Position numbers and translations under genes: made by a program. Below are positions 2,387-6,537 of a DNA stretch of 38,229 nucleotides, piece by piece (position 1 is the stretch's first letter; every line of letters begins with the position of its first letter). The DNA comes from Candidatus Asgardarchaeum abyssi. Its GTDB lineage: Archaea; Asgardarchaeota; Asgardarchaeia; Asgardarchaeales; Asgardarchaeaceae. The stretch spans positions 1 to 38,229 of the forward strand of contig JBECUL010000017.1 of the NCBI GenBank assembly GCA_040225955.1, written 5' to 3'. The notes below the pieces were generated by a model. That model did no database searches. It saw nothing but the letters and a program-made list of their open reading frames with translations, and was not told the origin of the DNA.

Positions 2387-2797
2387 TTAACCAATCACCC
2401 GAATTTGTGTCGCTAAAGCTTGGCCAGGAAGCCCTTTACTAAAACGAACCAAAAGATGACCTGCTCTGCCGTGTAGTTTAATCACTTTGCCAATAATCCT
2501 TTTAGAGATATTTTTCGGATGAACCCACTCAATAGTAGATCCAATTAGATATGACTTATGTGATAGTGGGATTTCAGGAAAGTCTACAGCAGCCCTACGT
2601 GTATCAGAACGATAAAAGTTTAGGATTACGCCGGTTTTACCAATAAACTTTGGCTTAATAAATACAGATTTTATAACTTTCTTTTTTTTAGGGCGAACTT
2701 GTCTTGCTTTTCGTCTTCCTTTTACCTTGTTTCTTTTTTCCAGCTGGTTTTTCTTTTACATCGTTTGTGGTATCACTTTTTTCTTCTTTCGAGGCAT
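2387..2797 (-). pseudogene. rpl35ae: Ribosomal protein eL33 (L35Ae) with a basic N-terminal extension, interrupted by an in-frame TAA (pseudogene, recoding or assembly error)
   Basis: Not in ORF track. ATG at 2797 gives MPRKKKKVIPQTM*KKNQLEKRNKVKGRRKARQVRPKKKKVIKSVFIKPKFIGKTGVILNFYRSDTRRAAVDFPEIPLSHKSYLIGSTIEWVHPKNISKRIIGKVIKLHGRAGHLLVRFSKGLPGQALATQIRVIG*. The C-terminal GKVIKLHG..G....RF.KGLPGQAL is the archaeal L35Ae signature. Internal TAA at 2758-2756. Confidence 0.85.
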
Positions 2798-2901
2798 AAT
2801 AATCACTTGTTGATGCCTTTAATTTTATTATAATGAATAGCAAAGTAATACCTCAAAAATAAGAGAATATAATTATTTTAAAGTTTGCGCTTAAAATGAA
2901 A

Positions 2902-3612
2902 TTAAAGTCTTCTTTTGCTACCCGTCTTATTAACAGTCTCTTTCTCATATTTAAAGAATGGTGAAAGGAAAGATGGTCCCTCTAAAACTTCTTCAAAAAC
3001 AGCTTGCAAATATTCCAGTCCTGCATCTATTTCCCTTTTTGATTGTTTGATGGCTTCTGTATCAATATACGGTTCCACTCTCCAAACCGTAAAATAATTA
3101 GTTAGCTCTATAGGTGTTGGTTCTGTATTTATAATAGCATCTCTTATTGCTGTTTTTACCTCAAAGCTTTTCTCATACATGTTAATAATACGTCTTATCT
3201 CTTTAATTATGACTCTAACTATATCTACTACTTTATCCCCAATCATACTGATGTTTGAATATTTATCAAGTAATGATTCAACAGCATCTAAATGAGCCTT
3301 AATCTCACTTGTCATATTAAGAAGGTGTGAAAATATGTTATATGCCTTATCGAGAGAAGGGACAAGCTGTTCATAAAGAATCATATAAAGCTTAGCTTTT
3401 AATTTCTCTGAAAGATCAGGAAACTCTTCTAGAACTCCTAACTCCTTCTCTGAGTACAAAAGTTGAAAACCTATGTCGGTAATGACTCTAACAGTACCAA
3501 TAGACTCTCTTACAGTCTCATTCCATTTCTCAGTAAATGTATCTAACTTTTCAACAGCTAGTTCCAAACTTCGTATGATCTCTCTAAGTACTTCTCGTTC
3601 AACATTTTTCAT
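2902..3612 (-). CDS. All-helical protein, putative C1orf109(AIRIM)/CINP-like family
   Basis: 236 aa, helical/coiled-coil character. Motifs EKWNETVRES, GVLEEFPDLSEKLKAK, INMYEKSFEVK and WRVEPYID resemble, in order and spacing, human C1orf109 (LWQSALRD, ALRAFPDLKERLRRK, ERHYRKSYLKR) and the CINP C-terminal WxxQPYI, as recalled. Confidence 0.6.
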   Translation of the reverse strand: MKNVEREVLREIIRSLELAVEKLDTFTEKWNETVRESIGTVRVITDIGFQLLYSEKELGVLEEFPDLSEKLKAKLYMILYEQLVPSLDKAYNIFSHLLNMTSEIKAHLDAVESLLDKYSNISMIGDKVVDIVRVIIKEIRRIINMYEKSFEVKTAIRDAIINTEPTPIELTNYFTVWRVEPYIDTEAIKQSKREIDAGLEYLQAVFEEVLEGPSFLSPFFKYEKETVNKTGSKRRL

Positions 3613-3632
3613 ATTATCAATCCCTCACAATG

Positions 3633-3696
3633 AGGCTCGGCTACCCCAGGTGAGAATCATTGTCTCACTCAAGGGAGGTGACTTTCATCATCGCCT
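3633..3696 (-). ncRNA. Box C/D methylation-guide sRNA (predicted 23S rRNA targets near the peptidyl-transferase region)
   Basis: Minus strand: AGGCG-ATGATGA(C box)-AAGTCACCTCCC-TTGA(D')-GTGAGACA-ATGATT(C'-like)-CTCACCTGGGGTAG-CCGA(D variant)-GCCT. Terminal stem AGGC/GCCT; GC-rich island within an AT-rich intergenic space. Confidence 0.75.
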
Positions 3697-3744
3697 AATA
3701 ATTCTATCTCGTGCTTCTTTTTATTCTTTTCTATACCTTTTAAC

Positions 3745-5921: not shown

Positions 5922-6317
5922 TTATTCTGTTTCCGATAGCCTTTTGCGTATAGCTTTTGTAAGATCTATCATTTCTTCTCCTCTACGTTTAATAAATATC
6001 TTGCTTTCTTCACCAGTAATTTTTCGCTCTATTAATTTAACTTCTAGTCTTGAGAGAACATGGTCAATATATCCAAATCTGAATGCATTTACTATTACGA
6101 TTTTAATTTTATCTGCAAGTGATGGGGAACTCTTCTCAAGGCTTTTAAGATAGCTATAAGCTTCATCATCTAATAGGTTTCGAATTATCGCCTCAACAGC
6201 TCTACGGATATCTTGCTTTTCAGCCTTCTTTTTTTCTTCTTCTCTGGTTTTCAATCTTTCCATGAGTTCTCTTATCTTTTTCTGCCGTATAGCCTCAAGC
6301 TCATCCATACTGAACAC
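5922..6317 (-). CDS. PDCD5/TFAR19-like double-stranded DNA-binding protein (divergent; probable start ATG 6308)
   Basis: MDELEAIRQKKIRELMERL...IIRNLLDDEAYSYL...P.LA..I...KIFIKRR follows the PDCD5 pattern (DELEEIRRRKL; ILxxEARERL; KIxIxR). Confidence 0.7.
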   Translation of the reverse strand: MFSMDELEAIRQKKIRELMERLKTREEEKKKAEKQDIRRAVEAIIRNLLDDEAYSYLKSLEKSSPSLADKIKIVIVNAFRFGYIDHVLSRLEVKLIERKITGEESKIFIKRRGEEMIDLTKAIRKRLSETE

Positions 6318-6472: not shown

Positions 6473-6537
6473 GGGCCATTCAGCGTAACTTTGATTAATC
6501 ATCAAATTCATCCTCGTCGGGTATTCATCATCGGCCC
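6473..6537 (-). ncRNA. Box C/D methylation-guide sRNA (predicted 23S rRNA targets in domain IV)
   Basis: Minus strand: GGGCCG-ATGATGA(C)-ATACCCGACGAGG-ATGA(D')-ATT-TGATGA(C')-TTAATCAAAGTTACG-CTGA(D)-AT-GGCCC. Terminal stem GGGCC/GGCCC; BRE/TATA-like GCAAAAATTATAT about 25 nt upstream. Confidence 0.92.

Follow-up and report, generated by a model that had tools for sequence, protein, structure and literature searches.

In a 38,229-nt stretch of contig JBECUL010000017.1 from Candidatus Asgardarchaeum abyssi (the window, always meant at its full length), a box C/D small RNA (sRNA), a gene for an all-helical protein of the CINP/C1orf109 type (the CINP-like gene) and the gene of ribosomal protein eL33 follow one another in tandem, co-oriented on the minus strand, as can be read directly from the sequence. 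We consider it probable that this cluster is not a dedicated operon for large ribosomal subunit (LSU) biogenesis, but an ordinary arrangement of three genuine genes that are loosely linked. The source genome is an Asgard metagenome-assembled genome (MAG) of 2.6 Mb with 34% GC, an estimated completeness of 93% and 7.8% contamination.

Gene order was compared among related loci (designated by L-numbers), including four found by searching metagenome contigs with a four-row alignment of the CINP-like protein. The window and locus L042, whose CINP-like proteins are 98-100% identical, share the order TrmB, sRNA, CINP-like gene, eL33 and methionyl-tRNA synthetase (MetRS). In a relative with 76% identity (L024-26), TrmB, sRNA and the CINP-like gene are followed by 228 nt and MetRS, without eL33 or a remnant of it; indeed, a DNA alignment of the spacer between the CINP-like gene and MetRS in L024 with that of the window revealed nothing recognizable as eL33. 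At 42% identity (L027/L028 and L047), the CINP-like gene, eL33 (241-270 aa, including a long extension rich in K/E) and MetRS stand together without the sRNA, and at 41% (L029-31) the CINP-like gene is followed by RNase HII, again without the sRNA, and MetRS lies 2.3 kb upstream. In nine genomes of four other Asgard families, the CINP-like gene has varied neighbors, eL33 is found on another contig and no C/D motif occurs upstream. The sRNA therefore precedes the CINP-like gene only in the window species and its 76%-identical relative, being absent from the 41-42% lineages and from 11 loci of other families. The eL33 gene follows the CINP-like gene in two of the four lineages of the clade, always in the order CINP-like gene, eL33, MetRS, and in none of the nine genomes of other families. 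Because of these lineage-wise gene orders, the CINP-like gene, eL33 and MetRS appear to form an old block of the clade that decayed twice, and the sRNA appears to be a recent addition upstream of it. A sequence-only reading of this DNA had described a compact neighborhood for LSU biogenesis. Its three co-oriented elements are indeed there, but the functional module it proposed is not supported, since MetRS also belongs to the block and the links are patchy. Nor can the neighbors lend support, by association, to a C1orf109-like function, as gene order is largely not conserved across relatives.

The 64-nt element itself is a real, lineage-specific RNA that we predict to be a dual-guide rRNA-methylation guide, in keeping with the earlier reading; its box layout, a strict-pattern control and the pairing of its guides all point this way. 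A RUGAUGA-type C box and a short terminal stem are present and are kept in L042 and L024-26, and positions 3696-3633 also contain D′ and C′ boxes in the interior and two guides, 12 and 13 nt long (Table 1). L042 and L024-26 conserve the boxes, the CCGA D box among them, and the guide cores, and flanking bases vary in the 76% relative. A strict C/D pattern was found at seven sites in the genome versus none in a reversed control, and among these seven only the element at 3696-3633 has a co-oriented open reading frame (ORF) start within 60 nt. In addition, the genome encodes the C/D ribonucleoprotein (RNP) components fibrillarin (E 3e-95) and Nop5 (E 9e-72), as well as two L7Ae-family genes. No Rfam family matched at gathering thresholds anywhere in the window. 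Five archaeal C/D families (sR44, sR43, sR17, sR55 and sR39) matched 3635-3695 of the minus strand weakly, at 12-15 bits against gathering cut-offs of 35-50, and the orthologous element of L024 matched sR17 at 21.8 bits, likewise below gathering. Rfam C/D models are guide-specific, however, so that a sub-threshold score says little here.

In its C/D′/C′/D layout, its 12-13-nt guides and its short terminal stem, the element resembles archaeal dual-guide C/D sRNAs (Rfam sR17, sR44 and sR39, and the families described in Pyrobaculum by Lui et al., 2018, PMC6009581). It differs from the usual archaeal C/D sRNAs in having a CCGA rather than a CUGA D box and a degenerate C′ box, and from known families in that its exact dual-guide pattern was found in only one of 400 Asgard genomes searched. 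CCGA keeps the GA required for the sheared pairs, with U2 replaced by C. This D box is invariant in the window, L042 and L024-26 and unusual among archaeal C/D sRNAs; it would change the customary U·U pair of the kink-turn (k-turn) to U·C.

Both guides find adjacent sites in LSU rRNA, which supports the earlier claim that the sRNA acts on this subunit. A genome-wide search for LSU and small-subunit rRNA genes returned none in the MAG, despite its 93% completeness, and LSU rRNAs of other Asgard families served as targets in place of its own. The D′ guide pairs with the LSU sequence GGAGGUGAC and the D guide with UACCCCAGG plus one G·U pair, with 8 nt between these sites. When at least 9 Watson-Crick base pairs and coverage of N+5 were demanded, each guide had a single site in one 3.1-kb Asgard LSU rRNA, the two lying 17 nt apart, and none of 5000 shuffled guide pairs had two such sites within 100 nt. 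A statistic permitting G·U pairs was dropped, as 6.6% of shuffled guide pairs then match both sites within 100 nt. Among ten Asgard LSU rRNAs read, eight contain the target motif (C/U)GGAGGUG(A/U)CAGAAAAGUUACCCC(A/G)GGG(A/G)UAACAG; L041 has the D-guide site only, and in L039, the remaining one, the region was not found. By alignment to E. coli 23S rRNA, the D target corresponds to positions 2438-2446, with N+5 at 2441, and the D′ target to about 2419-2427, both in LSU domain V and directly 5′ of G2447-A2451 in the peptidyl-transferase ring. The predicted 2′-O-methylations fall on the fourth base of each target sequence, GGAGGUGAC and UACCCCAGG. Archaeal dual guides usually target sites less than 100 nt apart (PMC6009581), as the two guides of the window would do.

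The Asgard target region GGAGGUGACAGAAAAGUUACCCCAGGGAUAAC also bears a likeness to yeast 25S rRNA, corresponding to the eukaryotic stretch that carries Gm2793 (snR48) and Gm2815 (snR38). The N+5 base of the D′ guide would presumably align with Gm2793, and for the D-guide target (E. coli 2441) no counterpart in yeast is known to us. Both yeast methylations have been documented (PMC5199042). As a separate observation, the D′ guide, (A)GUCACCUCC(C/U) at 3673-3684 of the minus strand, is closely similar to the 3′ end of 16S rRNA (anti-Shine-Dalgarno), and its LSU target GGAGGUGA is a perfect Shine-Dalgarno (SD)-like sequence. The fold predicted for the L042 leader has the UCCCUU of this guide paired with the GAGGGA of the downstream gene (window 3621-3627, minus strand).

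For the protein encoded downstream, profile and fold comparisons bear out the CINP/C1orf109-like identity first proposed from sequence. On its own, the 236-aa window protein matches PF15011 (CA109-like) at 15.1 bits, below the cut-off of 27 (E 0.022; residues 20-96 only), and 18 of 20 aligned homologs match this family at a loose threshold of E ≤ 0.1, the best with E 1.6e-14. When a family profile was compared with the PDB, CINP was matched along nearly its whole length with E 8e-7 (profile positions 9-183) and C1orf109/AIRIM with E 3e-3, and chains of these two proteins make up the seven best matches. Motifs common to the family and to human CINP/C1orf109 include a W near the N-terminus, MYE-K-E-(F/L)L-K and YL-x-W-x-(E/Q)-PY-(I/V)-E. 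An AlphaFold2 model (predicted local distance difference test 87.7, predicted template-modeling (TM) score 0.80) retrieved only CINP or C1orf109 chains at Foldseek PDB ranks 1-8, with TM scores of 0.4-0.7, the best match being 9gwj_A (E 8e-4, TM 0.61/0.70). Profile and predicted structure thus support membership of the protein in the CINP/C1orf109 family. This identity is correct but not new for Asgard archaea: Asgard CINP homologs have already been published, the family being restricted among prokaryotes to Asgard archaea (PMC12962969; Nat Microbiol 2026), and our homolog search likewise found CINP-like homologs in Asgard MAGs only.

Human CINP and C1orf109/AIRIM form the adaptor pair of the SPATA5-SPATA5L1 (55LCC) AAA+ complex (PDB 8rhn, 9lgo, 9gwj, 8cih). 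The window protein shares with them a helical fold of about 200 aa (TM 0.6-0.7) at about 15% identity to the human chains. Unlike the human pair, it is encoded by a single gene in the genome. Cdc48-type ATPases are ubiquitous in archaea, and the presence of one would not discriminate it as the partner of such an adaptor. It is the homology to CINP/C1orf109, and not the neighboring genes, that suggests what the helical protein may do.

How the sRNA and the CINP-like gene are expressed can be approached from the signals around them. A TATA/BRE (B recognition element)-like block, ATAGAAAAGAATAAAAA, lies 21 nt before the sRNA's 5′ end (23 nt in the 76% relative) amid intergenic DNA that has otherwise diverged; by its spacing and composition, it is likely the promoter of the sRNA and probably that of the CINP-like gene as well. 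The ATG of the 236-aa ORF (3612-3610) is exactly 20 nt from the end of the sRNA. This gap holds no run of more than two Ts and no TATA-like box, and a scan for bacterial-type promoters and terminators, which is uninformative for an archaeon, found no terminator in it. An SD-like GAGG (3626-3623; GAGGG, 9 nt before the ATG) lies within the conserved sequence CATTGTGAGGGAT. Given the conserved TATA-like block upstream and a gap without a T-run or promoter-like box, read-through from the sRNA into the CINP-like coding sequence is plausible and most likely as the simplest reading, and the co-transcription suggested earlier therefore fits the sequence. By contrast, the hairpin that had been proposed at this junction (CCTCA-TTG-TGAGG, 3635-3631 pairing with 3627-3623) does overlap the 3′ stem and the SD-like GAGG but is not a selected structure. 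It is weak (-5.4 kcal/mol, z -1.08) and no better than chance, 28 of 200 shuffled sequences folding equally well, and its middle pair is lost in L042 (CCCCA-TTA-TGAGG) and L024 (CC-CA) with no compensating change.

We propose that the sRNA has a TATA-like promoter of its own and that, together with L7Ae, Nop5 and fibrillarin, it would direct 2′-O-methylation of the two adjacent sites in LSU domain V, probably also helping these sites to fold. Transcription would most likely continue into the CINP-like gene 20 nt downstream, because the gap is too short for a promoter and lacks a T-run, so that the sRNA would form the mRNA leader; the mature sRNA would be trimmed from this transcript after the RNP has assembled on it. 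An effect of the RNP or of L7Ae on the SD about 10 nt away would be a possible side consequence rather than a demonstrated switch. The eL33 gene would be a separate unit of the older CINP-like gene/eL33/MetRS block, upstream of which the sRNA was added later. Sense sRNAs at mRNA 5′ ends, and their excision, have been described in Pyrobaculum, and the window sRNA, on the sense strand just 5′ of an ORF, resembles this category (PMC6009581). In Pyrobaculum, 88% of the guides that overlap an ORF 5′ end have lost their targets (PMC6009581), whereas the window sRNA does not overlap its ORF and both of its guides keep theirs. Taken as a whole, three real and loosely linked genes with read-through from the sRNA is the explanation to which we give moderate credence.

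Several points count against this explanation. While the identities of the three elements, the targets of the guides and the synteny pattern are shown, promoter, read-through, processing and methylation have all been deduced from sequence, and guide pairing was tested on rRNAs of other Asgard families, the MAG having no rRNA genes of its own. The CCGA D box, the degenerate C′ box, Rfam scores far under gathering and a minimum-energy fold in which the two guides pair with each other would also suit a degenerate C/D-like relic, or a purely cis-acting leader structure, in place of a working methylation guide. We regard this as very improbable, given that both guide cores are kept at 76% protein identity as flanking bases vary, that both are complementary to adjacent conserved LSU sites in the pattern typical of dual guides (PMC6009581), and that the genome encodes the proteins of the C/D RNP. 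It is somewhat easier to imagine, if still doubtful, that the sRNA and the CINP-like gene are independent, uncoupled units whose close spacing reflects genome compaction, a further promoter, overlapping either the sRNA gene or the 5′ flank of that gene, giving rise to the CINP-like mRNA. An AT-rich stretch directly 5′ of the sRNA (GATAGAATTATT, 3710-3699, in the window; TAATATTTAAA in L024) might act as another TATA box, and a start about 25 nt downstream of it would land in the D′ guide, inside the sRNA, giving a leader without the C box. In Pyrobaculum, moreover, sRNAs mostly favor promoters of their own, and where they lie with respect to ORFs is fluid (PMC6009581). Yet no T-run or terminator-like signal (the scan being of bacterial type) separates the sRNA from the coding sequence, the sRNA interior is not TATA-like, and the leader of an SD-led mRNA would have to overlap the sRNA anyway.

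The remaining point in this group is that the CINP-like gene and eL33 stay paired in two lineages with differing outer flanks, which could mean some selection for linkage. This would agree with a functional LSU biogenesis module, in which the C/D k-turn of the leader binds L7Ae or the C/D RNP and tunes translation of the CINP-like gene to the status of small nucleolar RNPs and ribosomes. Each of the three elements has a connection with the LSU, the spacer that bears the SD is conserved, and this sRNA alone among the seven has a co-oriented ORF start so close by. Given co-transcription of the two, the leader geometry would also be compatible (D box at 3640-3637, SD at 3626-3623): as in L7Ae autoregulatory k-turns of 5′ untranslated regions, the k-turn motif would sit about 10 nt from the SD, provided that the leader includes the sRNA (Daume et al., 2017, PMC5539422; Huang and Lilley, 2019, PMC6298567). 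In Sulfolobus and other archaea, L7Ae represses translation through such k-turns lying beside the SD (PMC5539422), and its interference has been raised for sense sRNAs at mRNA 5′ ends (Lui et al., PMC6009581). The autoregulatory k-turns, however, are simple, stand-alone motifs in mRNAs of C/D RNP proteins, whereas the window motif is a complete guide RNA before a gene whose product is not an RNP component. Against a module also stand the absence of the sRNA before the ortholog in the 41-42% lineages and the 11 loci of other families, the restriction of its dual-guide pattern to one genome in 400, the loss of eL33 from the locus of a relative that keeps the sRNA, the membership of MetRS in the conserved block, the TATA-like box of eL33 after a T5 run and the lack of conservation of the hairpin. 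Such a module is, in our view, unlikely. Coupling of the sRNA leader to translation through L7Ae remains speculative, by analogy with this published precedent. One could go further and suppose that assembly of L7Ae, Nop5 and fibrillarin on the nascent leader decides between an sRNA and an mRNA fate, that the D′ guide may pair with the SD in cis and that output of the 60S-adaptor homolog is thereby coupled to free C/D RNP capacity, but we rate this chain as unlikely too.

The finding is mainly corrective. The link of the CINP/C1orf109-like protein to eukaryotic 60S and replisome adaptors is real, but it rests on homology rather than on neighbors and was already in the literature. Of modest value in itself is a concrete C/D sRNA from an Asgard archaeon whose two LSU targets, beside the peptidyl-transferase ring, are well defined. 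A complete guide RNA 20 nt before an SD-led gene, a clean natural case, could also provide a test bed for the published proposal that C/D or L7Ae binding influences downstream translation. Were the coupling borne out, the capacity for rRNA modification would be tied to a eukaryote-like assembly factor in archaeal relatives of eukaryotes.

The third gene is eL33, as had been proposed, with a PF01247 match just over the cut-off of 27 bits (29 bits; 28.5 in another search) and no other copy in the genome. It is probably a separate transcription unit, since a T5 run and then its own TATA-like box precede it; a comparable T5 run follows the CINP-like gene in L024. In the window, the gene is interrupted: an ATG at 2797 is followed by an in-frame TAA (2758-2756), and no ATG, GTG or TTG lies between this stop and the eL33 core, which ends at TAA 2389-2387. 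Set against L042, where the 142-aa ORF is intact, the window carries 2 extra nt in an A run (2782-2777) and lacks 20 nt near 2696/2695; the net change is in frame, yet the TAA arises. Intact eL33 of 141-142 aa, beginning MPRKKK with a 55-aa Lys-rich extension, is present in the near-identical L042 and in L045, whose CINP-like protein is 100% identical to that of the window. The break may be a real variant or an assembly error. An alternative genetic code or an intron was rejected as the cause of the stop, which is explained by the two indels relative to the intact near-identical copies.

Table 1. Features of the sRNA, CINP-like gene and eL33 region, in window coordinates (76% relative, L024-26)
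Feature	Position	Strand	Basis or remark
TATA/BRE-like block ATAGAAAAGAATAAAAA, 17 nt, candidate promoter	3718..3734	-	invariant in 76% relative
Dual-guide box C/D sRNA, 64 nt, variant CCGA D box	3633..3696	-	box layout and weak Rfam matches
5′ stem AGGC	3696-3693	-	read directly
C box ATGATGA	3691-3685	-	read directly
D′ guide AAGTCACCTCCC, 12 nt	3684-3673	-	read directly
D′ box TTGA	3672-3669	-	read directly; GTGA in 76% relative
C′ box ATGATTC	3660-3654	-	degenerate; ATGATAC variant too
D guide TCACCTGGGGTAG, 13 nt	3653-3641	-	read directly
D box CCGA	3640-3637	-	read directly
3′ stem GCCT	3636-3633	-	pairs with 5′ stem AGGC
Hairpin CCTCA-TTG-TGAGG	3623..3635	-	overlaps sRNA 3′ stem and SD-like GAGG
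CINP/C1orf109-family all-helical protein gene, 236 aa	2902..3612	-	profile and predicted fold
T-rich run TTATTTTTG, candidate archaeal terminator after CINP-like gene	2854..2862	-	read directly
TATA-like TTATAATAAAA, candidate separate promoter, 25 nt upstream of eL33 ATG	2823..2833	-	read directly
eL33 (L35Ae) with Lys-rich N-terminal extension, interrupted in assembly	2387..2797	-	PF01247

Across the clade, eL33 has an N-terminal extension of low complexity, rich in Lys/Glu, whose first residues are always MPRKKK and whose length is very variable, from about 55 aa in the window species to about 150-185 aa in the 42% lineage. Among the copies compared (window 2387-2797, minus strand; L042:3816-4244; L045:1932-2354; L027:4802-5614; L047:1477-2202), only that of the window is broken, its indels falling within an A-rich stretch of the extension.

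Other neighbors of the CINP-like gene recur within particular lineages. In both 41-42% lineages (L027:2830-3849; L029:2651-3670), it is preceded divergently by the same pair, a protein of 132-135 aa that lacks annotation and an Arf-like small GTPase. In one Asgard family (L002-L005; genomes G026, G036, G004 and G015), it consistently follows a 180-190-aa gene and an archaeal S-adenosylmethionine synthetase-like gene; these identities were assigned by eye from N-terminal sequences, and the 180-190-aa gene looks like a helix-turn-helix protein. Elsewhere in the window, the strict pattern scan detected another C/D sRNA, canonical and with CTGA as its D box, at about 6480-6531 of the minus strand, some 160 nt upstream of a co-oriented PDCD5-like dsDNA-binding gene (5922-6317).

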